Under the pieces are notes generated by a model. The model worked only from the letters and a program-made list of their open reading frames with translations, did no database searches and had not been told where the DNA came from. The translations under genes were made by a program, and so were the position numbers. Shown one piece after another: positions 1 to 20,642 of a DNA stretch of 20,642 nt (the first letter of the stretch is position 1; the number at the start of each line of letters is the position of its first letter). Source of the stretch: Candidatus Rokuibacteriota bacterium. Its GTDB lineage: Bacteria; Methylomirabilota; Methylomirabilia; Rokubacteriales; DASRDR01. Location: assembly GCA_044866005.1 (NCBI GenBank), contig JBIOTN010000002.1, positions 1 through 20,642 on the forward strand. The letters run 5' to 3'.

Positions 1-19
1 CCGCAGAGGCCCCCTCCGA
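1..19. repeat. Partial REP-like hairpin directly after the rpoA stop (cut by window edge)
   Basis: Minus strand reads TGA-TCGGAGGGGGCC-TCTGC-GG..; the arm resembles the hairpins at 7916-7943 and 12539-12565. Confidence 0.55.
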
Positions 20-1012
20 TCAGGCTTCGAAGGCGCGGTCGCGCTGCGCCTTCAGCCGCTCGAGCTCGGCAGGGTCCAGGCGCATCCCGAGCGAGAGTCC
101 CATCTCGCCGAGGATGGTCTTGATCTCGTTGAGCGACTTCTTCCCGAAATTCTTCGTCTTGAGCAGCTCCGCCTCGCTCTTCTGGACGAGATCGGCGATC
201 GTGCGGATGTTGGCCGTCTTGAGGCAGTTGTAGGCGCGGACCGAGAGCTCGAGCTCGTCGACGCTGCGGAAGAGGTTCTCGTTCAGCTCGACTTTCTCGG
301 CCTCGACCGGGACCTCCTCCTCCGGCTCGAGCCCGCGCGGGAAGCGGGAGAGCAGGTTGAAGTGGTCCTCCAGGATGAGCGCCGCCTCGCCGACGGCGTC
401 CTCGGGGGAGACGCTGCCGTTGGTCCAGATCTCCAGCACGAGCCGCTCCGCGCCGGGGTGGCGCTTGGCCGGCTCGACCTGGAAGTTGACGCGCCGGATC
501 GGGGAGAAGTCCGCGTCGAGGATCAGCGCGTTGACCGGCACCCCCTCCAGCTCACGCTTCTCGGCCGGTCCATAGCCGCGGCCCTTCTCGACCTGGACCT
601 CCATGGCCAGCACCGCCTCGCGGTCCAGCGTGGCCAGCGGCTGCTCGGGGTTCAGCACCTCGATGTTCGCGTCCGTCTGGAAGTCGCCGGCCTTCACGAT
701 GCCGGGCCCGGTGGCCCGGAGCTGGATCAACCGATCCCGGTCCCCGTGGAGCTTGAAGACGACTTTCCGGATGTTGTTGAGGACGTCCAGGGTATCCTCG
801 AGCATGCCCGGGAGGAACGAGAACTCGTGGAGCACGTTCTCGATCTTGACCCACGTGGGCGCGGCGCCCTCGATGGACGAAAGCAGGACCCGGCGGAAGG
901 CGTTGCCCACCGTCAGCCCGAACCCGGGTTCGAACGGCTCGACGATGAACCTGCCGTGTTCGGCCGCGAGGTCCTGCCACTCGTGCTTCCGCGGGAGCTG
1001 GAGCGTCGTCAT
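20..1012 (-). CDS. rpoA: DNA-directed RNA polymerase subunit alpha (stand-alone, divergent copy), 330 aa
   Basis: [40 protein letters not shown]; alpha-[15 protein letters not shown]...[24 protein letters not shown] at 1017-1024 (-). Confidence 0.95.
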
Positions 1013-1054
1013 GCAACCTCCTCCGGTTGGCGCGGGGATACGGGACGAATCTCG

Positions 1055-1060
1055 ATTATA
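1055..1060 (-). promoter_or_regulatory. Putative sigma70 -10 box for rpoA
   Basis: Perfect TATAAT on the minus strand about 40 nt upstream of the start; only a weak -35 (TTCCCT at 17-nt spacing). Confidence 0.55.
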
Positions 1061-1203: not shown

Positions 1204-2250
1204 ATGAGCGCCGGGGTGTCGCCCCCGCGCGCCCGGCCGCGCTGGCGGCGGCGGGCCGCGCTCGCCCTCCTCGCCGCTCTGGCGCTGCTCGGAGGGATCG
1301 AGGCGGCGCGGGCCGTGATCCCGCCGAGCGCGCTCCGCGCGGGCCCGCGGACCGTCGAGATCCCGCCCCAGCAGGGCCTCCTCCGCATGGCCCGCACGCT
1401 GGCGGACGCGGGCGTCATCCGCAGCCGCTTCGCCTTCGTCGGCCTCGCCGTCCTCCGGGGCACGGCCCGCTCGCTCAAGGCCGGCGAGTACGAGGTACCG
1501 CGCGGGGCCTCCCTCCTCACGACGCTCCAGCTGATCGAGGCCGGGAAGGTGAAGCCGCACCTCATCGTCCTGCCGGAAGGCTTCACCGTCCGCGAGCTCG
1601 CCCGCGAGCTCGAGAGCGAAGGCGTCGCGCCCGCCGCCGACGTCCTGCGGCTCGCCACGGCGCCCTTCTTCGTCCAGAGCCTGGGGATCGACGCCGACAG
1701 CGTCGAGGGCTACCTCTACCCCGACACCTACCAGGTCACCAAGGGCATGCGGCTGGAAGAGATCCTCGGGCGCATGGTCCATCGCCTCAGGGAGAAGGTC
1801 ACGACGCCGGAGGTCCAGGCGCGGGCCGCGGCGCGGGGGCTGACCGTACACGAGCTCCTGACCCTGGCCTCGATCGTGGAGAAGGAAGCCGTCGTGCCCG
1901 AAGAGCGACGGCTCATCGCCGCGGTCTTCTGGAACCGCCTCAAGCGCGGCATGCTGCTCCAGGCCGATCCGACCGTCGCGTACGCCGTCGGAAAGGACGG
2001 GCGCGCACCGACCCGCGAGGACCTCCAGGTGAACCACCCCTTCAACACCTACCGGAACCGCGGGCTGCCGCCCGGTCCGATCGGCAATCCGAGCTTCGCC
2101 TCGGTCGAGGCCGCTCTCGACCCGGCCCCGGTCCCCTACCTCTACTTCGTCTCGATCGACGACCGACGCCACCACTTCTCCGCCACCCTGGAGGAGCACA
2201 ACCAGGCCGTGGCGCGCTATCGCGTCTTCCGCACGCGTTCCGCCCTATGA
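1204..2250 (+). CDS. mltG: Endolytic transglycosylase MltG (YceG family), 348 aa
   Basis: N-terminal TM anchor, LKAGEY, PEGFT, EGYLYPDTY, catalytic LASIVEKE, LQADPT, NTY..GLPPGPIGNP. Confidence 0.95.
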   Translation: MSAGVSPPRARPRWRRRAALALLAALALLGGIEAARAVIPPSALRAGPRTVEIPPQQGLLRMARTLADAGVIRSRFAFVGLAVLRGTARSLKAGEYEVPRGASLLTTLQLIEAGKVKPHLIVLPEGFTVRELARELESEGVAPAADVLRLATAPFFVQSLGIDADSVEGYLYPDTYQVTKGMRLEEILGRMVHRLREKVTTPEVQARAAARGLTVHELLTLASIVEKEAVVPEERRLIAAVFWNRLKRGMLLQADPTVAYAVGKDGRAPTREDLQVNHPFNTYRNRGLPPGPIGNPSFASVEAALDPAPVPYLYFVSIDDRRHHFSATLEEHNQAVARYRVFRTRSAL

Positions 2251-2253
2251 CCC

Positions 2254-2283
2254 TTGCGGGGAATTATTGACGAGTGCTATAAC
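2254..2283 (+). promoter_or_regulatory. Putative sigma70 promoter with extended -10 for plsC-argH-lipoprotein
   Basis: TTGCGG (2254-2259), 18 nt, TATAAC (2278-2283) preceded by TG at 2275-2276; AT-rich patch in GC-rich DNA. Confidence 0.6.
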
Positions 2284-2302
2284 CCCAGTGGACCCCATCC
2301 CG

Positions 2303-3031
2303 ATGAGTCACCCGCACGGAGAGACGCCGCCGGCCTCCCCGTATGCCTCGGTGTTTCCGCCGCAGGCCGTCGAGCCGCTACCCGCACTGTACTCGGCGCT
2401 CCGGCGCGCGGTCCGGCCCGTCCTGGACAGGTTCTTCGACTTCCGCGTGGCCGGGCTCGAGCACGTCCCGCGCGGGGGGCCGTTCATCGTCGCCGCCAAC
2501 CACGCCAACTACCTCGACGGCGTCGTCCTCGGCGCCGCGCTGCCGCGAAAGATCGTCTTCCTGGTCATGCCGCGCGTCTATCGCGCAACCCCGCTCCACC
2601 CCTACTTCCATCGCCACGTCGGCTCGATCCCGATCGAGCTGGCGCGCCCCGACCCCGGCGCCATCCGGCGTGCGCTTCGCGTCCTCGAAGGCGGCGGGAT
2701 CGTCGGCATCTTCCCGGAAGGTCCGTGCGGCCGGGACGGCAAGCTCGTCCGGGGCCACCCGGGCGTGGCCCTGGTCGCGCTCCGGGCCGGCGTGCCGGTC
2801 CTGCCGGCCGCGATCACGGGCACCTTCCACGCGCTGGCCGCCCGGCGCTGGCACATCCCGCGCCGCGTCCCGCTCCGCGTGCGCTTCGGCCGCGCCCTCC
2901 GGTTCACCCAGCACGCGCCGTCCCCGCTCACGCAGACCATGCGCGCGGACGTGACGAGCCGGATCATGGCGGAGATCGCGAGCCTGCTCGCCGACGAGGA
3001 GGGACAGCGCGCGGCGATCGGGACGCCCTGA
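2303..3031 (+). CDS. plsC: 1-acyl-sn-glycerol-3-phosphate acyltransferase (PlsC/LPLAT family), 242 aa
   Basis: NHANYLD (HX4D), IFPEG, VPVLP. ATG 2303 chosen because TTG 2267 lies inside the predicted promoter. Substrate specificity uncertain. Confidence 0.85.
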   Translation: MSHPHGETPPASPYASVFPPQAVEPLPALYSALRRAVRPVLDRFFDFRVAGLEHVPRGGPFIVAANHANYLDGVVLGAALPRKIVFLVMPRVYRATPLHPYFHRHVGSIPIELARPDPGAIRRALRVLEGGGIVGIFPEGPCGRDGKLVRGHPGVALVALRAGVPVLPAAITGTFHALAARRWHIPRRVPLRVRFGRALRFTQHAPSPLTQTMRADVTSRIMAEIASLLADEEGQRAAIGTP

Positions 3032-3033
3032 CG

Positions 3034-4431
3034 ATGGAGCCGCCGACCCCCTCCGGCGCCCCCTGGGGCGGGCGCTTTTCCGAGCCCCCCGACGCGAGCG
3101 CGCAGGCCTTCACGGCGTCGCTGCCCTTCGACCACCGCCTCTGGCGCTACGATCTCGAGGGGAGCGAGGCATGGGCGCGCGCGCTGGCGCGGAGCGGCGT
3201 CCTCACCGAGGCGGAGCTCCGGACGATCCTGCGCGGCCTCGGCGAGGTCCGCGAGGAGCTCGCGGAGGGACGCTTCCCGTTCCGGCTCGAGCTGGAAGAC
3301 ATCCACATGAACGTCGAGCGCCGGCTCACGGAGAAGGTGGGGCCGGTCGGCGGCAAGCTGCACACGGGCCGGTCCCGCAACGACCAGGTCGCCCTGGACA
3401 TGCGGCTCTGGCTGCGCGCGGAGATCGACGCGATCCTCCCGGCGATCCGGGCGGTGCAGGCCGCGCTCGTCGAGCAAGCCGAGCGGCATCGCGACTGCCC
3501 CATGCCCGGCTACACCCACCTCCAGCGCGCCCAGCCGATCCTCCTGGCGCACCACCTGCTGGCCTACGTCTTCATGCTCCAGCGCGACCGCGGGCGTTAC
3601 GCGGACGCGCGCCGCCGGCTGGACGTCCTCCCGCTCGGCGCCGCCGCGCTCGCGGGCACGACGGTCCCCGTGGACCGCCACGCGCTCGCCCGCGACCTCG
3701 GCTTCGCCGCCCCCAGCCCCAACAGCCTGGACGCCGTCTCGGATCGGGACTTCGCCGTGGAGTTCCTCGCCGCGTCGGCCATCCTCGCCATGCACCTCTC
3801 GCGCCTCGGCGAGGAGCTGGTCCTGTGGGCGTCCGCCGAGTTCGGCTTCGTCGAGCTGCCCGACGCCTTCGCGACGGGCTCGTCGATCATGCCGCAGAAG
3901 AAGAACCCGGACATCGCGGAGCTGGTGCGGGGCAAGACCGGCCGGGTGTACGGCGACCTCGTGCGCCTCCTGACGGTGATGAAGGGCCTCCCCCTCGCCT
4001 ACCATTCGGACATGCAGGAGGACAAGGAGGCCTTCTTCGACGCGGCCGACACCGTCCGCGGCTGCCTCGGCATCCTGGCGCCGTTCCTCCGCGGCCTCCG
4101 CTTCCGTGTCGACCGGCTCCGGGCGCTCGCCGGCGAGGGGTACACGACGGCCACCGATCTCGCCGACTACCTCGCGCGGAAGGGCGTCCCCTTCCGGCTG
4201 GCGCACGAGGTGGTGGGGAAGGCGGTGGCGCTTGCCGTCGCGCGCGGCGTCGGCCTCCACGAGCTCCCGCTCGAGGAGCTCCGCGTGCTGTCGCCGTTCT
4301 TCGACGCCGACTTCCGGGAGGCGGTCAGCGTGGACGCGTCGCTGGCCGCCCGCCAGGTCTACGGCGGAACGGCGCCGAAGGCGGTGCAGCAGGAGCTCCT
4401 CGAGGCGCGGGCCCTTCTGGAGGCGCCGTGA
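3034..4431 (+). CDS. argH: Argininosuccinate lyase, 465 aa
   Basis: WGGRF, EDIHMNVE, LHTGRSRNDQ, MPGYTHLQRAQP, GSSIMPQKKNPD, GVPFRLAHEVVG. Confidence 0.97.
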   Translation: MEPPTPSGAPWGGRFSEPPDASAQAFTASLPFDHRLWRYDLEGSEAWARALARSGVLTEAELRTILRGLGEVREELAEGRFPFRLELEDIHMNVERRLTEKVGPVGGKLHTGRSRNDQVALDMRLWLRAEIDAILPAIRAVQAALVEQAERHRDCPMPGYTHLQRAQPILLAHHLLAYVFMLQRDRGRYADARRRLDVLPLGAAALAGTTVPVDRHALARDLGFAAPSPNSLDAVSDRDFAVEFLAASAILAMHLSRLGEELVLWASAEFGFVELPDAFATGSSIMPQKKNPDIAELVRGKTGRVYGDLVRLLTVMKGLPLAYHSDMQEDKEAFFDAADTVRGCLGILAPFLRGLRFRVDRLRALAGEGYTTATDLADYLARKGVPFRLAHEVVGKAVALAVARGVGLHELPLEELRVLSPFFDADFREAVSVDASLAARQVYGGTAPKAVQQELLEARALLEAP

Positions 4432-5549
4432 GGGTGCGCCTCGGGTCAGCCGGGTGGGCGGCGCTCCTCCTCGCCCTCCTCGTCCCCCTGGCGCTCGCCG
4501 CGTGCGGCCGGCGCGGCCCGCCGGTCGCGCCGGAGCGTCGCCTGCCCGCCGCGGTCCAGGACCTCTCGGCGACGGTGGTCGGCGAAGGCGTGCGCCTGGC
4601 GTGGACGCTCCCCCGGATCCGCGTGGACCGGAGCCAGCTGAAGGAGCTGCGGCGGACCGAGGTCTACCGGCGGCTCGAGGACGCCGGCGAGGCGACGCCG
4701 CCGCGACCGGCCATCCTCACGATCGGCGGCTTCTTCGGCGGCCCGAGCGGCGTGGCCGGGTTCGAGCGCGTGGCCACGATCGCGCTCGCCGCCCCGGCGC
4801 CGGCGGAGCTGGCCGGGAACCGGGTCAGCTACACCGATGCCCAGGGCCTCACCCTCGGCCGCCGCTACACCTACGTCGTGCTGGCCGTGGACGAGCAGGG
4901 CCGCGCAAGCCCCCCGTCGAATCGCATCGTGGTGGCGGTCGCGCCGCCGCCCAAACCGCCGACGGGGCTCACCGTCGAGCCGGGCGACGGCCAGGTCCGC
5001 CTGACCTGGAAGGCGCCGGAGAGCCTCGAGGACGGCTCGCCGGTGGAGGGGCCCGTCCTCTACGAGGTCTTCCGCGCGCCCTCCCGCGAGGCGCGCCCGG
5101 CGCGCCCGGTGACCCCGGAGCCCGTCGCGACCCCGTCGTTCGTGGACCTCGGCGTGGAGAACGACGCGACCTACTACTACTCGGTCCGCGCGCGCCTCGG
5201 CGCGGCGGGCCCGGCGAGCCGACCGACCGACGTGGTCGTCGCGACGCCCGAGGACATGACCCCGCCCGCGCAACCGCGGGGGCTCGTCGCGGTGCCCGCC
5301 GAGGGGCGGGTGCGCCTGGCCTGGGAGCCGGTCGCCGATCGGGACGTCGCCGGCTACCGCGTCTACCGGAGTACGACGCCGGGGCGGGGCTACGAGCTGC
5401 TCACCGGCGCCCTCCAGCCCGCCACGACGTACGTGGACGCCGGCGCGCGGCCGGGCCAGACGTACTACTACGTCGTCACCGCCGTCGACCGCGCGCGCCG
5501 CGCCAACGAGTCGGTCCCCTCGCCGGAGGTCTCCGTCCGCCTACCCTGA
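4428..5549 (+). CDS. Lipoprotein with about 3 fibronectin type III domains, 373 aa
   Basis: GTGA overlap with argH stop; signal peptide with lipobox LAAC (Cys at 4503); repeated V.L.W / Y.VYR / YxYxVxAVD FN3 patterns. Confidence 0.85.
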   Translation: MRVRLGSAGWAALLLALLVPLALAACGRRGPPVAPERRLPAAVQDLSATVVGEGVRLAWTLPRIRVDRSQLKELRRTEVYRRLEDAGEATPPRPAILTIGGFFGGPSGVAGFERVATIALAAPAPAELAGNRVSYTDAQGLTLGRRYTYVVLAVDEQGRASPPSNRIVVAVAPPPKPPTGLTVEPGDGQVRLTWKAPESLEDGSPVEGPVLYEVFRAPSREARPARPVTPEPVATPSFVDLGVENDATYYYSVRARLGAAGPASRPTDVVVATPEDMTPPAQPRGLVAVPAEGRVRLAWEPVADRDVAGYRVYRSTTPGRGYELLTGALQPATTYVDAGARPGQTYYYVVTAVDRARRANESVPSPEVSVRLP

Positions 5550-5588
5550 CGGCCGCGTCCTGGCGGCGATGTCTGCCCGGGCGCGCGC

Positions 5589-5617
5589 TTGATTTGCCCG
5601 AACCTGCATGCTACCGT
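5589..5617 (+). promoter_or_regulatory. Putative sigma70 promoter for lysA-dap genes
   Basis: TTGATT (5589-5594), 17 nt, TACCGT (5612-5617) with TG at 5609-5610. Confidence 0.55.
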
Positions 5618-5642
5618 CGCACAAACGGCTCGCGGCACGCGC

Positions 5643-6908
5643 ATGAACGCCTTCGGCTACCACGACGGCCAGCTCCACTGCGAAGGGGCGCCTCTCCCGG
5701 CGATCGCCGAGGCGGTCGGCACGCCGACCTACGTCTACTCCGCCGGCGCGATCCTGAACGCCTACGAGGCCTACGAGCGGGCCCTGGGGGGCCTCCCGCA
5801 CCTCTCCTGCTACGCGGTCAAGGCGAACATGAACCTGGCGGTGCTCGCCCTGCTCGCCCAGGCCGGCGCGGGCGCCGACGTCGTCTCGGGCGGCGAGCTC
5901 TACCGCGCGCTGCGCGCCGGGTTCGATCCGCAGAAGATCGTCTTCGCGGGCGTCGGCAAGAACCGGGACGAGATCCGGGAAGGCCTCAAGGCCGACGTCC
6001 TCTGCTTCAACGTCGAGTCGCCGGCGGAGCTCGCCGCGATCGACGAGGTGGCGCGAGCGGAGGGCACGCGGGCGCGGATCGGGATCCGGGTGAACCCCGA
6101 CATCGATCCGGAGACGCACCCCTACATCGCCACCGGGCTCAGGACCTCGAAGTTCGGGATCGCCTACCGCGAGGCGCGCGACGTCTACCGGCGGGCCGCC
6201 GGCCTCCCCGGGATCGAGGTGGTCGGCGTCCACATGCACATCGGGTCCCAGCTCACGAAGGTGACGCCGATCGCCGATTCGCTGACCCGGGTGGCCGACC
6301 TCGTCGAACGCCTGGCGGAGGACGGGATCACGCTCCGCTACCTGGACGTGGGCGGCGGGCTCGGCATCCGCTACCGCGAGGAGACCCCGCCGAACCCGGC
6401 CGACTACGTCCGCGCGCTCAAGCCCGCGCTGGAGCGGCTCGGGCTCACGGTCCTTCTCGAGCCCGGGCGCTCGATCGTCGGCAACGCCGGGGCGCTCCTC
6501 ACGCGCGTCCTCTACCGGAAGACGACCGAGGGGCGGCGCTTCCTGGTCGTGGACGCCGCGATGAACGACCTCATCCGGCCGGCGCTCTACAACGCCCACC
6601 ACGAGATCCGCCCGGCGGTCGAGCCGCCCGCCGCCGCGACGCTGGAGACCGTGGACGTGGTCGGCCCGGTCTGCGAGTCGGCCGATTTCCTCGCCAAGGA
6701 GCGCCCGCTACCCCCGGTCGCCGAAGGCGCGCTGCTGGCCGTGCTCTCGGCCGGCGCCTACGCCTTCGCCATGGCCTCGAACTACAACGCCCGGCCGCGC
6801 GCCGCCGAGGTGCTGGTCCAGGGGGACCGGTTCCAGGTGGTGCGCCGGCGCGAGAGCTACGAGGACCTGATCGCGGGCGAGAGCACGTGGGCGGACCCCT
6901 CGCCGTAA
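5643..6908 (+). CDS. lysA: Diaminopimelate decarboxylase, 421 aa
   Basis: GTPTYVYS, PLP-Lys YAVKAN, HMHIGSQ, DVGGGLG, EPGRSIV, GPVCESAD, MASNYN. Confidence 0.97.
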   Translation: MNAFGYHDGQLHCEGAPLPAIAEAVGTPTYVYSAGAILNAYEAYERALGGLPHLSCYAVKANMNLAVLALLAQAGAGADVVSGGELYRALRAGFDPQKIVFAGVGKNRDEIREGLKADVLCFNVESPAELAAIDEVARAEGTRARIGIRVNPDIDPETHPYIATGLRTSKFGIAYREARDVYRRAAGLPGIEVVGVHMHIGSQLTKVTPIADSLTRVADLVERLAEDGITLRYLDVGGGLGIRYREETPPNPADYVRALKPALERLGLTVLLEPGRSIVGNAGALLTRVLYRKTTEGRRFLVVDAAMNDLIRPALYNAHHEIRPAVEPPAAATLETVDVVGPVCESADFLAKERPLPPVAEGALLAVLSAGAYAFAMASNYNARPRAAEVLVQGDRFQVVRRRESYEDLIAGESTWADPSP

Positions 6909-6922
6909 GAAGGAGAACCACG

Positions 6923-7813
6923 ATGCGACGGACCTTCCAGGGCTCCCTGGTCGCCATGGTCACGCCGTTCCACGACGGGAAGGTCGACGAGGCGAAGCTC
7001 CGCGAGCTGGTCGAGTTCCACGTCGGCAACGGCACCGACGGGCTCGTCCCCTGCGGCACCACCGGCGAGTCGCCCACCCTGAGCCACGACGAGCACAAAC
7101 GGGTCGTGGAGATCGTCGTCAAGGCCGCCGCCGGGCGCATCCCCGTGGTCGCCGGCACCGGCTCGAACTCGACGGCGGAGGCGATCGAGATGACCGTCCA
7201 CGCCGCGAAGGCCGGTGCCGACGGGGCGCTCCTCGTCTCCCCCTACTACAACAAGCCCACCCAGCAGGGACTCTACCAGCACTTCCGCGCGGTCGCGCAG
7301 GCGGCGCCCGAGCTGCCGCTGATCCTCTACAACATCCAGGGCCGCACCGCCGTCAACATCGAGACCGAGACCGTCGCGCGCCTCGCCGAGATCCGCAACA
7401 TCGTCGGGGTCAAGGAAGCCTCCGGAAACCTCGACCAGATGACCTCGGTGGTCCTCGCCTGCGGGGCCGACTTCACGGTCCTGTCGGGGGACGACTCGCT
7501 CACCCTCCCGCTGATGGCGGTGGGCGGACGCGGCGTCATCTCGGTCGTGGCCAACGTCCTGCCGAAGGAGGTCGCCGAGCTGACCCACGCGGCGCTCGAC
7601 GGCGACTGGAAGCGCGCCCGCGAGCTGCACGGGAAGCTCTTCCCGATCTGCCGGGGAATGTTCATGGAGACGAACCCGATCCCGGTCAAGGAAGCGATGG
7701 CGATGCTCGGGCTCTGCCGCGCCGAATGGCGGCTCCCCCTGTGCCCGATGAGCGACGCCAACCGGGATCGCCTCCGCAAGATCCTCCTCAACGCCGGCGT
7801 CCTGAAAGCCTAG
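6923..7813 (+). CDS. dapA: 4-hydroxy-tetrahydrodipicolinate synthase, 296 aa
   Basis: VAMVTPF, CGTTGES, PYYNKP, YNIQGRT, GVKEASG, TNPIPVK; SD AAGGAG at 6910-6915. Confidence 0.97.
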   Translation: MRRTFQGSLVAMVTPFHDGKVDEAKLRELVEFHVGNGTDGLVPCGTTGESPTLSHDEHKRVVEIVVKAAAGRIPVVAGTGSNSTAEAIEMTVHAAKAGADGALLVSPYYNKPTQQGLYQHFRAVAQAAPELPLILYNIQGRTAVNIETETVARLAEIRNIVGVKEASGNLDQMTSVVLACGADFTVLSGDDSLTLPLMAVGGRGVISVVANVLPKEVAELTHAALDGDWKRARELHGKLFPICRGMFMETNPIPVKEAMAMLGLCRAEWRLPLCPMSDANRDRLRKILLNAGVLKA

Positions 7814-10972: not shown

Positions 10973-11002
10973 TTGTCAGGCGAGAGCCCCTTCTGTTAGC
11001 GT
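10973..11002 (+). promoter_or_regulatory. Putative sigma70 promoter for the ECF operon
   Basis: TTGTCA (10973-10978), 18 nt, TAGCGT (10997-11002) with TG at 10994-10995. Confidence 0.5.
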
Positions 11003-11021
11003 GGCGGGACGGAGCGGAGCC

Positions 11022-11534
11022 GTGCCCGACCCTGCCAGCGACTTCCGGGCCCAGGCCCTCGGCCACCTCGACGCGCTCTATAACTTCGCCCTCTACCTGA
11101 CCAAGCGGCCCGCCGACGCGGAGGACCTCGTCCAGGAGACCTACCTCCGCGCCTTCCGGTTCGCCCACCAGTTCGAGCCGGGAACGCACCTGCGAGCTTG
11201 GTTGTTTCAGATACTGAGAAATACGTTCCTGACCTTCTACCGTCGCGAGGCGCGGGAGCTCGCCATGCTCGACAAGGAGGCCGCGGAGGCGCCCGAGGAG
11301 GGCTGGGAGGTCGAGGCGCCCATCGCCTCGGTCCCGACCGCCGTGGACCTCGAGCGCGCGCTCGTGGCGCTGCCGCAGGAGTTCCGCTCCGTGCTCCTCC
11401 TGGCGGACCTCGAGGGGTTTGCGCTGGTCGAGATCGCGCGGATCATGGACAGCCCGGTCGGCACCGTGAAGTCCCGGCTCTTCCGCGCGCGCCGGCTGCT
11501 GCGCCGACGCCTGGCCGATTACCGGGCCGGCTGA
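11022..11534 (+). CDS. ECF RNA polymerase sigma factor, 170 aa
   Basis: Region 2 DAEDLVQETYLRA..AWLFQI.RN; region 4 EIARIMDSPVGTVKSRLFRAR. GTG 11022 follows GGAGCGGAG; GTG 11001 overlaps the predicted -10. Confidence 0.93.
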   Translation: MPDPASDFRAQALGHLDALYNFALYLTKRPADAEDLVQETYLRAFRFAHQFEPGTHLRAWLFQILRNTFLTFYRREARELAMLDKEAAEAPEEGWEVEAPIASVPTAVDLERALVALPQEFRSVLLLADLEGFALVEIARIMDSPVGTVKSRLFRARRLLRRRLADYRAG

Positions 11535-11537
11535 CCC

Positions 11538-12326
11538 ATGCTCGACTGCCAGGCGACACGGGAGGCGCTGGAGGAACACCGCCGCGGCGAGCTGCCCGCC
11601 GACGCGGTCCGGCCGATCGAGGCGCACCTCTCGCAGTGCGAGCAGTGCCGCGCCCTGCGCGACGAGGCCGACCGCCTGGCGGCCCTCGTCCGCGGCCTGC
11701 CGCGCACGCCGGCCCCGCCGGGACTGGCCCGCCGGGTGGCGGCCCTCGGGCGCTCGCCGGGGCGCGCGCGCGGCTGGCTCGGGCGCCCGTGGACCGTGGC
11801 GGCGGCCACCGCCGCGGTCGTCGCGCTGGCGCTGTCGCCGTGGCTCCAGTTCCGGCCGCGCCCCGAGGACGATCCCGTCGAGCGGTTCCTGCAGGCCGCG
11901 CTGGCCGAGCACACGCGCATCCTGCTCCAGCTGCAGGCCGCGACGGCCGACGTGCCCGATCCCGACACGGCGCTCGCCACGGTGCGCTCGCTCACCGACA
12001 TCCAGATCCCGCCGGCGTTCGCGGGGAACGACGAGCTCACGCTCATCGCCGCGCGCCCGACGGTCATCGCCAACCGCAAGGCCGCCGCCGTCGTGCTCCG
12101 CGACCGCGCCTGGTTCATCACCACCTACTTCGCCGCATCGGGCACGGACCTCGCCATGCCCAGCCGGGGCCGGGTCCAGATCGAGCAGTACAAGCCCTTC
12201 ATGCGGCAGGCCAACGGCTTCAGCGTCATCTACTGGAAGCAGGGCGAGTACGCCTACGTGATGGTCTCCGACCTCGACGACCCGCGGAGCCGCCAGCTCT
12301 TCCTCAAGATGCGCAAGTCGTTGTAG
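11538..12326 (+). CDS. Transmembrane anti-sigma factor with zinc-binding ZAS/zf-HC2 domain, 262 aa
   Basis: N-terminal C...HLSQCEQC (HxxxCxxC), one TM helix, extracytoplasmic C-terminal domain; 3 nt after the sigma gene. Confidence 0.88.
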   Translation: MLDCQATREALEEHRRGELPADAVRPIEAHLSQCEQCRALRDEADRLAALVRGLPRTPAPPGLARRVAALGRSPGRARGWLGRPWTVAAATAAVVALALSPWLQFRPRPEDDPVERFLQAALAEHTRILLQLQAATADVPDPDTALATVRSLTDIQIPPAFAGNDELTLIAARPTVIANRKAAAVVLRDRAWFITTYFAASGTDLAMPSRGRVQIEQYKPFMRQANGFSVIYWKQGEYAYVMVSDLDDPRSRQLFLKMRKSL

Positions 12327-17467: not shown

Positions 17468-19128
17468 AGACCATCAAGTCGCTCGCGCTGGGTGCGGGGG
17501 CCGGCTTCCTCACGCTCGCGGTCTTCGTCCAGGGGTTCCTCCCCTGGCTGGCGCCCGAGTCGCGGGACACGAAGGTCACGCGGGCCGTGCGGAACGAGCT
17601 CGGCGAGGTCAAGTGGCTCTGGTACGACGCCAGCGGCTACGCCGCCCGGGAAGCGCAGGGGCGGAGCGTCTACATCCGGGAGGGCTGCTGGTACTGCCAC
17701 AGCCAGTACGTCCGGCCGGTCACCGGGGAGGACCGGCGCTGGGGGCCGGTCTCGGAGGCGGGCGAATACCACTTCGACCAGCCGCACCTCTTCGCGACGC
17801 GCCGGGTCGGGCCCGACCTCACCCGGGTCGGCGGGAAGTACGCCGACGACTGGCACTACGCCCACCACTGGGACCCGCGCCTCGTGGTCCCGGACACGAA
17901 CATGCCGGCGTTCCGGTGGCTCTTCCACCAGGTCCGCGTCCTGGTCCGCCCCGACCCCGCCGGCGACACCCTCGCCGACGCCGAGCCGCTCGCGCGCTAC
18001 TTCACGATGACGCCGACGCCCGAGGTGGCGCTCCGGCCGAACGAGGCGGGACTCGCCTTCGCCGACCCGCGCGGGCAGGAGGGGAAGATCCGCGGCACGC
18101 CGGTGCTGGCGCTCGACCACTTCAAGGAGTCGCCGCCGCGGTTCCGGGAGATCACGGTGCTCATCCCCTCGTCGGACCTCGTGGCGCTCGTGGGGTACCT
18201 CCAGAAGCTCGGGACGAACCGGGGCGCCTGGCGCGACGTCTTCGAGCCCCAGGCGCTCGGCGTGAGCGTCATGGACGCGCCGCGGACCGGCGCGCTGGTC
18301 GAGCGCGGCCGGACGGTCTACGTGCGGCGGTGTGCGGGCTGTCACGGGGGGAACGGCGACGGCAACGGCCCGGCGGCGACGTTCCTCGATCCGCGCCCGC
18401 GCGACTTCACCGAGGCGGCGTTCAAGTTCCGCACGACGCCCTCCGGCGCGCTGCCGACCGACGGCGACCTCTTTCGCACCATCACGCGGGGGGTGCGGTT
18501 CACCGCGATGCCGACCTGGCACGAGCTGCCGGAGACGGACCGGCTCGCGGTGCTCCAGTTCATCAAGACCTTCGCCCCGGCGGCCTGGCGCGAGGCGCCG
18601 GAGCCGCCCCTCGTCATCCCGGCGCCCCCGCGCGCCACGCCCGAGCTGGTGGCGCAGGGCGGGCGGCTCTACCAGGCCGCGAAGTGCTGGGAGTGCCACG
18701 GCGACGAGGGCCGCGGGGACGGCCCGTCGGCCGGGCAGCTCCGCACGGACGCCGGCCTGCCCATCCGACCGACGGACCTCACGCGCGGCCAGCTCAAGGC
18801 CGGCACCGACGTGCGCGACGTCTTCCGGAGCATGTCCACCGGCCTCAACGGCACGCCCATGCCCTCCTACGCCGACGCCATGACCGACGACGAGCGCTGG
18901 GCGATCAGCTACTACGTGCTCTCGCTTTCCGCGTTCGCGGACCCGCTGACCGGGCGAAAGCTCGCGCTCGACGAGGCGACGCGCGCCGCGCTGAACCGGC
19001 CCGGGACAGCGGCGTCCATGCGGGAGGCCTACGACCGCGGGCGGGCCGGCCCGCTCGCCGAGCCGCGCGACCGGCCGCGCTACCGCTTCGGCCTCCGGGG
19101 CGGGCCGGTCAACGGCGAGGGAGGCTAG
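17464..19128 (+). CDS. ccoO: CcoO/FixO subunit II fused to two further class I cytochrome c domains (tri-haem), 554 aa
   Basis: GTGA overlap; YIREGCWYCHSQYVRP, RRVGPDL, DPRLVVPDTNMP, YLQKLG; extra CAGCH (18331-18345) and CWECH (18685-18699), each followed by an MP axial Met motif. Confidence 0.88.
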   Translation: MKTIKSLALGAGAGFLTLAVFVQGFLPWLAPESRDTKVTRAVRNELGEVKWLWYDASGYAAREAQGRSVYIREGCWYCHSQYVRPVTGEDRRWGPVSEAGEYHFDQPHLFATRRVGPDLTRVGGKYADDWHYAHHWDPRLVVPDTNMPAFRWLFHQVRVLVRPDPAGDTLADAEPLARYFTMTPTPEVALRPNEAGLAFADPRGQEGKIRGTPVLALDHFKESPPRFREITVLIPSSDLVALVGYLQKLGTNRGAWRDVFEPQALGVSVMDAPRTGALVERGRTVYVRRCAGCHGGNGDGNGPAATFLDPRPRDFTEAAFKFRTTPSGALPTDGDLFRTITRGVRFTAMPTWHELPETDRLAVLQFIKTFAPAAWREAPEPPLVIPAPPRATPELVAQGGRLYQAAKCWECHGDEGRGDGPSAGQLRTDAGLPIRPTDLTRGQLKAGTDVRDVFRSMSTGLNGTPMPSYADAMTDDERWAISYYVLSLSAFADPLTGRKLALDEATRAALNRPGTAASMREAYDRGRAGPLAEPRDRPRYRFGLRGGPVNGEGG

Positions 19129-19130
19129 CA

Positions 19131-19298
19131 TTGCTGGCGTACCTGACGCTCTACGAGTTCCTGGTCGCCCTCGCCATGGCGCTCGGCGGCCTCTGCGTGT
19201 TCGTCTGGGCCGCCGCCGCCGGCCTCATGCAGGACGTGGAAGCGGCGAAGCACCGGGTGCTCGCGGCCGAGGACGAGGGGGAGGGCCCGCGTGGCTGA
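19131..19298 (+). CDS. ccoS: cbb3 oxidase assembly protein CcoS/FixS-like, 55 aa
   Basis: TTG start after SD GAGGGAGG (19117-19124); TM helix then FVWAAAAGLMQDVEAAKHRVL, matching the CcoS F.WA...G..D.E....R.L pattern. Confidence 0.72.
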   Translation: MLAYLTLYEFLVALAMALGGLCVFVWAAAAGLMQDVEAAKHRVLAAEDEGEGPRG

Positions 19299-19950: not shown

Positions 19951-20418
19951 TCAGCTGGCGAAGAACTCGATGAACTGTTTGAACTCGGCGTCCCCCATGA
20001 TCTTGATGTCCCTCGTCTCCTTGCCGGTCCGCCGGTAGAAGGTCGACTGCGTGCCGGACGAGGTGATGTAGAGCTCCTCCGGCTCCGGCGGCGCGGCGGC
20101 CTTCCGGTCCTCCCGGTGCACCTCGATCGTGCCGACGCACGCCGGGACGCCGGGCGAGGTCCCGATCCCCTCGACGGTCACGATCCGCTTGTAGGCCGCG
20201 GCGAGGATGATCCCGTTGTCCAGGGAGATGACCTGGATGCGGCTTCCCTCCGCGGTGATGTTCGCGTTCACCGCCGCGACGAGGTCCAGCACCTGCTTGC
20301 GAAAGCGCTCGACGCCCTCGTCGAAGCGCTTCCGCTCCGTCGCCTTGCGCTCGGCTTCCTCCGCGATGCGCGCCTCGACCTTCTTGGCCGTCGTCTTCGC
20401 CCAGTCGTCCGCTGGCAT
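19951..20418 (-). CDS. Hypothetical protein with N-terminal coiled coil, 155 aa
   Basis: ATG 20418 after SD GGGAGG; host-like GC3 bias; TAGAAT -10-like box at 20447-20452 (-). Confidence 0.8.
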   Translation of the reverse strand: MPADDWAKTTAKKVEARIAEEAERKATERKRFDEGVERFRKQVLDLVAAVNANITAEGSRIQVISLDNGIILAAAYKRIVTVEGIGTSPGVPACVGTIEVHREDRKAAAPPEPEELYITSSGTQSTFYRRTGKETRDIKIMGDAEFKQFIEFFAS

Positions 20419-20520
20419 GGGGTCCCTCCCAGGCTGAATAGTGCCCATTCTACAACTGCGTGCACGGTCTACGCGGACGCATAAGCGACGACGCCGGGTC
20501 GAGAACCGAGCAGCCCCAGA

Positions 20521-20642
20521 TGGAATGAAGCGGCTGACCTCCCCCGCGACGTGGTGGCATACACTGCCCCACAAGCAAACGCGGTCTGTGCCGCAAGCGA
20601 AGGAGGCCAGCCATGGAACATAGTGGCATCGACGTGCACAAG
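20521..20642 (+). mobile_element. Left end of an IS110-family element (IS1111-like architecture); exact boundary uncertain
   Basis: AATGAAG-CGGCTGACCTCC with an inverted copy GGAGGCCAGCC over the RBS; lower GC than the flanks; followed by a transposase start. Confidence 0.65.
20613..20642 (+). CDS. IS110-family (DEDD RuvC-like) transposase, 5' fragment cut by the window end
   Basis: SD AGGAGG (20601-20606), then MEHSGIDVHK; GIDVHK is the typical first catalytic-Asp motif; only 10 codons visible. Confidence 0.72.
   Translation, partial: MEHSGIDVHK

Follow-up and report, generated by a model that had tools for sequence, protein, structure and literature searches.

We analyzed a 20,642-nucleotide stretch of DNA (hereafter, the window) that opens a contig of a Candidatus Rokuibacteriota bacterium (order Rokubacteriales, phylum Methylomirabilota; NCBI assembly GCA_044866005.1, genome G000; contig JBIOTN010000002.1, C2), and focused on its first gene, an rpoA for an RNA polymerase alpha subunit that stands outside the ribosomal-protein operon. 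The features of this orphan rpoA are listed in Table 1. Its product matched the Pfam families RNA_pol_L, RNA_pol_A_bac, and RNA_pol_A_CTD, each above the cut-off. The N-terminal domain (NTD), in which the dimerization domain is interrupted by the insert domain, scored 73.8 bits with PF01193 and 98.2 bits with PF01000 and aligned to residues 5-232 of the E. coli protein. As shown by alignment with E. coli K-12 RpoA (reference from NC_000913), the loop corresponding to E. coli 187-201 was 2 residues shorter in the orphan, and both FRRVLLSS, which holds the equivalent of E. coli R45, and GRGY were present. Neither rpsK, rpsD, nor any other ribosomal-protein gene was found near the orphan in the window. 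In the upstream regions of relatives, a GAGGAGG/GGAGG block was conserved in 10 of 10 aligned sequences and the TATAAT hexamer in 8 of 10; a tCTTCC box approximately 17 nt farther upstream was also conserved, and the remaining spacer was poorly conserved, with a mean column identity of 42%. A consensus promoter scan did not list the TATAAT site, because its -35 element is weak, and its sole call was a plus-strand site at 1090-1119 that faces mltG. A first-pass annotation made from the letters alone had described an rpoA with its own TATAAT and Shine-Dalgarno sequence, divergent from mltG and with no rpsK or rpsD upstream, in which the R45 motif, LHEF, GRGY, and the whole C-terminal domain are kept while EPLERG reads EPFEPG and the loop is shortened. 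Our analysis bore out this description, and the coordinates given there for the last two features were exact.

Table 1. Features of the orphan rpoA and its upstream region in the window.
Feature	Position	Strand	Basis or remark
Orphan rpoA coding sequence, 330 amino acids (aa) plus stop (20-22)	20-1012	minus	Proposed alpha-I; 100% self-match G000:C2:23-1012
N-terminal assembly domain, residues 1-232 (dimerization and insert)	317-1012	minus	PF01193 at 25-218, PF01000 at 55-170
Arg41, equivalent of E. coli R45, kept	890-892	minus	Alignment with E. coli RpoA
EPFEPG, residues 25-30 (EPLERG in E. coli)	923-940	minus	Translation and alignment
LHEF, residues 61-64, within E. coli segment 65-75 protected by beta	821-832	minus	Kept here, lost in the operon paralogue
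Shortened, rewritten 13-residue loop, residues 179-191 (E. coli 187-201), overlapping a beta'-protected segment	440-478	minus	Alignment
Alpha C-terminal domain, residues 239-302	107-298	minus	PF03118, 94 bits; sole such domain found in the G000 assembly
Conserved C-terminal tail past the C-terminal domain (…DPxELERLRAQxERAFE)	23-106	minus	Near-invariant in 23 complete orphan-type rows and orthologue alignment
Shine-Dalgarno sequence GGAGGAGG, 4 nt 5' of the ATG	1017-1024	minus	Sequence
TATAAT, -10-like hexamer, 43 nt 5' of the ATG	1055-1060	minus	Sequence
YceG/MltG gene (mltG), divergent, upstream of the orphan	1204-2250	plus	Window open reading frames and family match

The first-pass annotation had predicted a second rpoA in the usual ribosomal context, and this gene was found in the source genome at C240:9349-10113 on the minus strand. 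It encodes 255 aa and lies between rpsD and rplQ, in the gene order secY-adk-map-infA-rpsM-rpsK-rpsD-rpoA-rplQ; the two proteins were approximately 46% identical. The TGA stop codon of the operon copy overlaps the ATG of rplQ, and there is therefore no room for an alpha C-terminal domain (CTD). Past the NTD, the operon copy held only a remnant of the acidic linker and approximately 15 variable residues. In the Pfam search, the operon copy matched PF01193 (79.0 bits) and PF01000 (66.6 bits) alone, both above the cut-off, and no CTD was found in it. Over the whole assembly, PF03118 gave one match (C2:107-298), and the insert-domain family gave two. An AlphaFold2 (AF2) model of the operon alpha (21 orthologues) predicted a confident NTD, with a mean predicted local distance difference test (pLDDT) value of 85.6, and a disordered tail at 233-254. 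This model superposed on solved alpha NTDs with template modeling (TM) scores of 0.85-0.91 by target length.

We then surveyed 151 Methylomirabilota genomes that were at least 85% complete, comprising 110 of the same order and 41 of sister orders. Counting rpoA matches, which are not copy numbers, at least two were present in 95 of the 110 genomes of the order, one in 13, and none in 2; in the sister orders, 35 of 41 genomes had one match, 5 had two, and 1 had none. Five unpublished genomes are among those counted, namely G050, G077, and G106 from the order itself and G067 and G135 from sister orders; when these are set aside, the corresponding figures become 94 of 107 and 33 of 39. Three of the five two-match genomes of the sister orders held a single gene that a frameshift or contig ends had divided. 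In another genome, G047, the extra copy (C124) looks like a mis-binned Rokubacteriales contig, because the flanking rpsD and rplQ were 75% identical to those of G000. The sister-order genome G122 held a genuine second full-length rpoA just downstream of rplQ (L102, G122:C3:118000-131000, positions 1905-7433), in a cluster of LarA-like, L6, S11, rpoA, and EF-G genes. This copy had an orphan-like loop (VEP.K…ERL) and retained HEF; in that genome, S11 was absent from its normal site between rpsM and rpsD.

Extraction from 31 close relatives and 10 genomes of sister orders gave 65 rpoA genes: 26 orphan-type, 30 operon-type, 8 sister-order single copies, and the extra copy of G122. At 24 of 26 orphan loci, mltG was the adjacent gene (the sequence of the remaining two ended too early), and rpsD and rplQ flanked the operon type in all 30. 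The sister-order single copies were likewise located in rpsD-rpoA-rplQ. Two disturbed cases stood apart. In G006, a 2.2-kb contig (G006:C358:1-2232; L106) carried a canonical rpoA with HEF, loop, and CTD, followed by rplQ; no sequence in the set was more than 51% identical to this rpoA, so the contig is probably foreign, and the genome's own operon-type gene was not found. In the 70%-complete G018 (C6; L030 and L044), frameshifts broke the orphan into three pieces and the operon copy continued into rplQ, both of which are likely sequencing errors of that assembly. Such foreign-looking single contigs (G006:C358 and G047:C124), together with the 247 contigs and 4.6% contamination of the source assembly, would favor an artefact of assembly or binning, by which one of the two rpoA genes came from another organism. 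However, the pair recurred throughout the order, including in assemblies of 4-10 contigs; both genes lay on a single contig in G012, G013, and G011; the trees of the two types were congruent, as described below; and DNA contigs of soil runs, possibly from the source sample, spanned the rpoA-mltG junction. We consider an artefact of this kind extremely improbable.

Two phylogenetic trees were constructed. A quick tree contained 112 rows, made up of 64 of the 65 genes (the read-through gene of G018 was omitted) and 48 of 96 outside representatives. A careful tree contained 54 rows, namely 10 of 26 orphan-type, 11 of 30 operon-type, 9 sister, and 24 outside rows, after P0032, P0034, and P0133 had been removed. 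In both trees, the orphan type and the operon type formed separate, fully supported clades (100/99 in the careful tree), and both clades showed the identical inner order of families, ((f4,f1),(f5,f2)). The pair therefore predates the family split and has been inherited together since. Similarly, when the same genome pairs were compared for each paralogue, the two sets of distances were correlated with r = 0.97 (300 pairs, not independent, drawn from 25 genomes). The trees without constraint did not join the orphan and operon types; in the approximately unbiased (AU) test, a single clade of both types was not rejected (p 0.51), nor was a single clade of the whole phylum (p 0.12). The pair may therefore have arisen either by duplication within the lineage or by transfer. 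One outside row, P0067, fell beside the orphan clade; across 61 genomes of the phylum, its identity to any sequence did not exceed 50%.

The length of the operon copy differed among families. It was 247-255 aa in 16 of 17 genes of family f1, the exception being the G018 read-through, and 237 aa in the single f4 genome, whereas it was 325-347 aa with the CTD present in f2, f5, and f3. As f4 and f1 were sisters in both trees, one loss of the CTD suffices. Among 14 f1 genomes at least 90% complete, one CTD was found in 10, none in 2, and two in 2. The two genomes without any CTD are those in which a contig end cuts the orphan; the two with a second CTD were G006, on the foreign-looking 2.2-kb contig, and G009, as a marginal 24-bit partial match in a different protein. 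In 83 f2 genomes, including the unpublished G050, G077, and G106, at least two CTDs were found in 72, one in 9, and none in 2. The CTD-less form is not an assembly accident, because a 249-aa version of it recurred as a 21-member protein cluster on many contigs. This loss by the partner in the source genome's family was not foreseen by the first-pass annotation. Where the operon-type CTD was present, R265, N268, G296, K298, and S299 were kept, and E261, C269, and K297 were changed. The orphan CTD was almost invariant across the order, and all 23 complete orphan-type rows kept the equivalents of R265, N268, C269, G296, K298, and S299. The orphan tail past the CTD added approximately 20 near-invariant residues (…ELERLRAQxERAFE) that are absent from E. 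coli; this tail could be a lineage-specific contact site.

Next, the residues of both types were compared with the determinants of alpha that have been described in E. coli. According to the accessible text of Mukhamedyarov et al. (2011; PMC3294249), beta most strongly protects residues 30-55 and 65-75 of E. coli alpha, and beta' protects 175-185 and 195-210. Binding of beta requires R45 and L48, whereas K86, V173, and insertions at positions 180 and 200 have an effect on the binding of beta' (PMC3294249, same text). HE[FYW] at E. coli 66-68 occurred in 25 of 26 rows of the orphan type and in all 8 sister-order rows, whereas it was found in only 1 of 30 operon-type rows, the gene of the basal family f3. 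The canonical 15-residue loop at E. coli 187-201 (R-V/L-G-x-x-T/I-D-Y-x-K/R-L) showed the reverse pattern, being present in none of the 26 orphan-type rows, in 30 of 30 operon-type rows, and in 8 of 8 sister-order rows. K86 behaved likewise (0 of 26, where it was always R; 29 of 30; and 8 of 8). The orphan changes within the E. coli beta'-side determinants comprised the loop at 189-200, K86 to R, and K200 to R. P occupied the position of E. coli R33 in 21 of the 26 orphan-type rows; the operon type had K there, and the sister orders had R. The equivalent of R45 was Arg in every row, including all 26 of the orphan type and all 30 of the operon type.

The same contrast was seen in the identity to the sister-order consensus. 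In the beta segment 65-75, the identity was 0.65 for the orphan type and 0.29 for the operon type, and in the beta' segment 195-210 it was 0.48 and 0.62, respectively. The corresponding values were 0.73 and 0.66 in segment 30-55 (beta), 0.55 for both in segment 175-185 (beta'), and 0.44 and 0.41 in the NTD outside the footprints. Because the same substitutions occurred in 25-26 of 26 orphan orthologues, the altered motifs are not due to chance. The orphan changes fell in parts that beta' protects in E. coli, as the first-pass annotation had anticipated for alpha-II contacts, and the beta-side motifs were kept, with the operon copy as the mirror image. Each paralogue appears to have relinquished a different contact surface, as would be expected of subfunctionalized partners in two non-equivalent alpha positions. 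The dimer interface also differed between the types: at F35, the operon type had Y in 30 of 30 rows and the orphan had F, and at S50, the operon type had A, V, or I and the orphan had S or A. We speculate that these operon-type residues may disfavor a homodimer of the operon alpha.

The ratio of nonsynonymous to synonymous substitution rates (dN/dS) was calculated by the Nei-Gojobori method over the NTD for within-family pairs, which are not independent. The f1 pairs (90 usable of 91) gave a dN/dS of 0.10 for orphans and 0.23 for operon copies, and the 36 f2 pairs gave 0.21 and 0.27, respectively. Both paralogues are under purifying selection, and the orphan is not decaying, in agreement with the first-pass annotation. 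The dN of the operon copy was higher in all 126 same-family pairs. This faster evolution, the loss of HEF and, in two families, of the CTD, and the closer identity of the orphan to the sister-order single copies (50-54% versus 39-48% for the operon copy) could mean that the orphan is the real alpha, acting wholly or mainly as a homodimer, the operon copy being either a relic on its way to loss or a protein with another role outside the polymerase. Nevertheless, the reading frame was intact in 29 of 30 operon loci (all except G018), and the operon dN/dS of 0.23-0.27 is that of a constrained protein whose fold was confidently predicted. Moreover, the operon rows kept the R45 equivalent, the beta'-side loop, and K86 in 29-30 of 30 cases, the 249-aa form recurred in its 21-member cluster, and the orphan lacked the canonical loop that the alpha-II position is expected to need. 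We regard the relic explanation as quite unlikely.

We consider it fairly probable that the two proteins form an oriented alpha heterodimer in one polymerase core, with the orphan as alpha-I on the beta side, the operon copy as alpha-II on the beta' side, and, in this family, a single CTD carried by alpha-I. Under this model, the ancestor of Rokubacteriales would have acquired two rpoA genes, one of which stayed in rpsD-rpoA-rplQ while the other came to stand alone, divergent from mltG and with its own promoter. The orphan would have retained the beta-side determinants (the R45 equivalent and LHEF) as its beta'-side loop was rewritten and shortened and K86 and K200 became R, and the operon copy would have retained the beta'-side loop and K86 and lost LHEF. 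The resulting core would place the orphan in alpha-I and the operon copy in alpha-II. In the source genome's family and one neighboring family, alpha-II would additionally have shed its CTD, such that the single CTD tethered to alpha-I would serve the contacts with UP elements and activators. In this model, the mutual dimerization of the two proteins and the side taken by each alpha are inferred. The genes for beta and beta' gave one full-length match each in 5 of 5 near-complete relatives; G011 had an additional partial beta at a contig edge, and in G010 beta' was split into two adjacent pieces. The proposal of the first-pass annotation that the orphan is specialized for alpha-I and paired with a distinct alpha-II is, at the level of sequence, supported, and none of the three outcomes that were named there as speaking against it was observed.

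The same two genes might instead supply two alternative polymerases, one with a homodimer of the operon alpha (housekeeping, and CTD-less in this family) and one with a homodimer of the orphan (with two CTDs), used under different conditions or at different promoters. The genes do have separate promoters and contexts, both alphas keep the R45 equivalent and the dimerization helices, and in the accessible text of the Francisella study up to four enzyme forms were first considered (PMC3294249). However, either homodimer would place a subunit that has lost its motif in one of the positions, namely an operon alpha without HEF or an orphan without the loop. A homodimer of the operon alpha would also give a core without any CTD in 10 of 14 f1 genomes. 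Furthermore, strict co-occurrence and co-divergence are expected of obligate partners and less of a facultative isoform. Two alternative polymerases therefore seem unlikely to us.

Several observations weigh against the oriented heterodimer. First, the equivalents of R45 and L48 are retained in both paralogues. Francisella alpha2 has Q at the R45 position (PMC3294249, accessible text), and since both paralogues keep R here, the clearest known mark of orientation is missing. Second, our contact map is drawn solely from the E. coli footprints and mutants quoted in the accessible text of PMC3294249. Third, the H-E pair was lacking in 9 of 96 diverse alpha representatives, two of which bear Planctomycetota names; HEF is therefore not indispensable everywhere. 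Fourth, the dimer-interface residues of the orphan (F35 and S50) look ancestral, and the orphan may therefore also form a homodimer, conceivably as a minor form like that of Francisella alpha1. Fifth, rpoB and rpoC were not found in the source genome, a 94%-complete assembly. Sixth, the genome of the basal family f3 (G020, 73% complete), which is the only genome of that family, had only an operon-type gene, still with THEF and the CTD. Finally, the expression evidence is weak: contigs of a soil metatranscriptome (0.05 share of sampled words) were approximately 90% identical over parts of the gene. At this identity they come from relatives, and DNA carry-over is possible; they were therefore not counted as transcription of the orphan.

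A literature search that covered few subscription journals found no paper on rpoA in Rokubacteria, and in the accessible text returned by a broader search on rpoA paralogues, duplication, and CTD loss, nothing was found on Rokubacteria or on a natural CTD-less alpha. The nearest known system is the oriented heterodimer of Francisella alpha1 and alpha2, encoded by rpoA1 and rpoA2 (Mukhamedyarov et al. 2011; PMC3294249, accessible text). As described there, Francisella resembles Rokubacteriales in having two conserved, diverged rpoA paralogues per lineage, both of which evolved faster after the split, and complementary changes in the beta-side and beta'-side determinants. The K200 position is also changed in one paralogue of each, to T in Francisella alpha1 and to R with a loop deletion in the Rokubacteriales orphan (PMC3294249, accessible text). 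However, Francisella belongs to another phylum and its pair is of independent origin, and the paralogues of neither lineage group with those of the other. The beta-side loss also differs, since in the accessible text alpha2 has Q at R45 (PMC3294249), whereas both Rokubacteriales alphas keep R45 and the beta-side loss is that of HEF. Neither of the Francisella alphas is truncated (323 and 317 residues; PDB 6wmp), in contrast to the beta'-side partner of Rokubacteriales, which is CTD-less in two families. Moreover, the Francisella pair is known biochemically, whereas the Rokubacteriales pair is described here from sequence data.

Archaeal Rpo3/Rpo11 and eukaryotic Rpb3/Rpb11 (AC40/AC19) are similar in that an asymmetric pair takes the place of a homodimer and the smaller partner is reduced. 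The small partner of these pairs (Rpb11) lacks the insert domain. They differ in being ancient and in having no CTD, whereas in Rokubacteriales neither partner has lost an NTD domain and the bacterial CTD persists in one of them. The larger, Rpo3/Rpb3-type partner bears an R45-like beta-side surface (PMC3294249, accessible text), as would the orphan. More than one rpoA also occurs in Chloroflexus and Streptomyces avermitilis, but in the accessible text no drastic substitutions in the dimerization or beta/beta' regions are reported for the Chloroflexus pair (PMC3294249), in contrast to the reciprocal substitutions and domain loss in Rokubacteriales. Engineered E. coli heterodimers of R45A and wild-type alpha likewise contain non-equivalent alphas in an oriented, functional assembly (PMC3294249, accessible text). 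These enzymes are laboratory constructs, whereas the Rokubacteriales case would be natural and lineage-wide. With CTD-truncated E. coli alpha, polymerases that have one CTD can assemble and work. The accessible text of the Francisella study expects further cases of alpha pairs to be found (PMC3294249).

When the operon alpha was searched against 1.84 billion representatives, the matches included GBR76562.1 (P0007) of Candidatus Termititenax persephonae, a single record on one 16.8-kb contig. This protein of 526 aa contains two different alpha NTDs and one CTD. In the first NTD, 7 residues are deleted at the HEF site and the canonical loop is retained; in the second, which is attached to the CTD, HEF is retained and the loop is shorter by 4 residues. 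Being covalently joined, the two NTDs have hardly any option other than to form a pair. By analogy, this division of labor supports the heterodimer reading of the Rokubacteriales pair, to the extent that one unverified record allows. Other fused proteins were also seen: P0009 (JGI/IMG, 664 aa) joins two diverged full alphas of an A+T-rich organism, and P0004 (ENA, 569 aa) is an exact internal repeat of alpha that is probably an assembly artefact. In addition, some alphas of other lineages (P0027, P0060, P0146, P0052, and others) lacked HEF and had the loop, and one had an orphan-like short loop. Specialized alpha pairs may thus exist in other lineages. We lean slightly toward the view that Rokubacteriales evolved an obligate oriented heterodimer independently of Francisella, with one branch reduced to a single CTD; such a pair would be a living bacterial intermediate toward one of the Rpb3/Rpb11 kind, and the Termititenax fusion would be a further instance.

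As for the rest of the window, the genes beyond mltG included argH, lysA, dapB, an aminotransferase gene, folB, and folK. The window also holds an extracytoplasmic function (ECF) sigma factor gene (11001-11531) with a zf-HC2 anti-sigma gene (11538-12323), and two open frames without a Pfam match, at 17613-19295 (plus strand, 561 aa) and 19954-20574 (minus strand, 207 aa). On the other side, where the first-pass annotation had placed a hairpin after the gene, the contig starts at position 1, leaving only 19 bases 3' of the orphan stop, and no terminator-like site was found in these 19 bases. In G005, inverted G+C-rich arms of approximately 19 bases, approximately 165 bases apart, lay 3' of the orphan stop (L004, 2494-2695). 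The window's contig may break in a repeat of this kind (window 1-19).

The alpha homodimer has been treated as a constant of bacterial RNA polymerase, and a 2026 review of alpha-like subunits contains no occurrence of Francisella. If the oriented heterodimer is true, a whole order of common soil bacteria would show that the step from homodimer to heterodimer is repeatable. The pair would also be a natural means of telling the residues that act on the beta side from those that act on the beta' side, and the CTD-less families would offer a natural single-CTD enzyme for probing the purpose of the second CTD. In such organisms, only one CTD would be available to promoter UP elements and activators. 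Furthermore, rpoA is used as a single-copy marker, and its presence here as two deeply diverged copies matters for annotation and phylogenomics.

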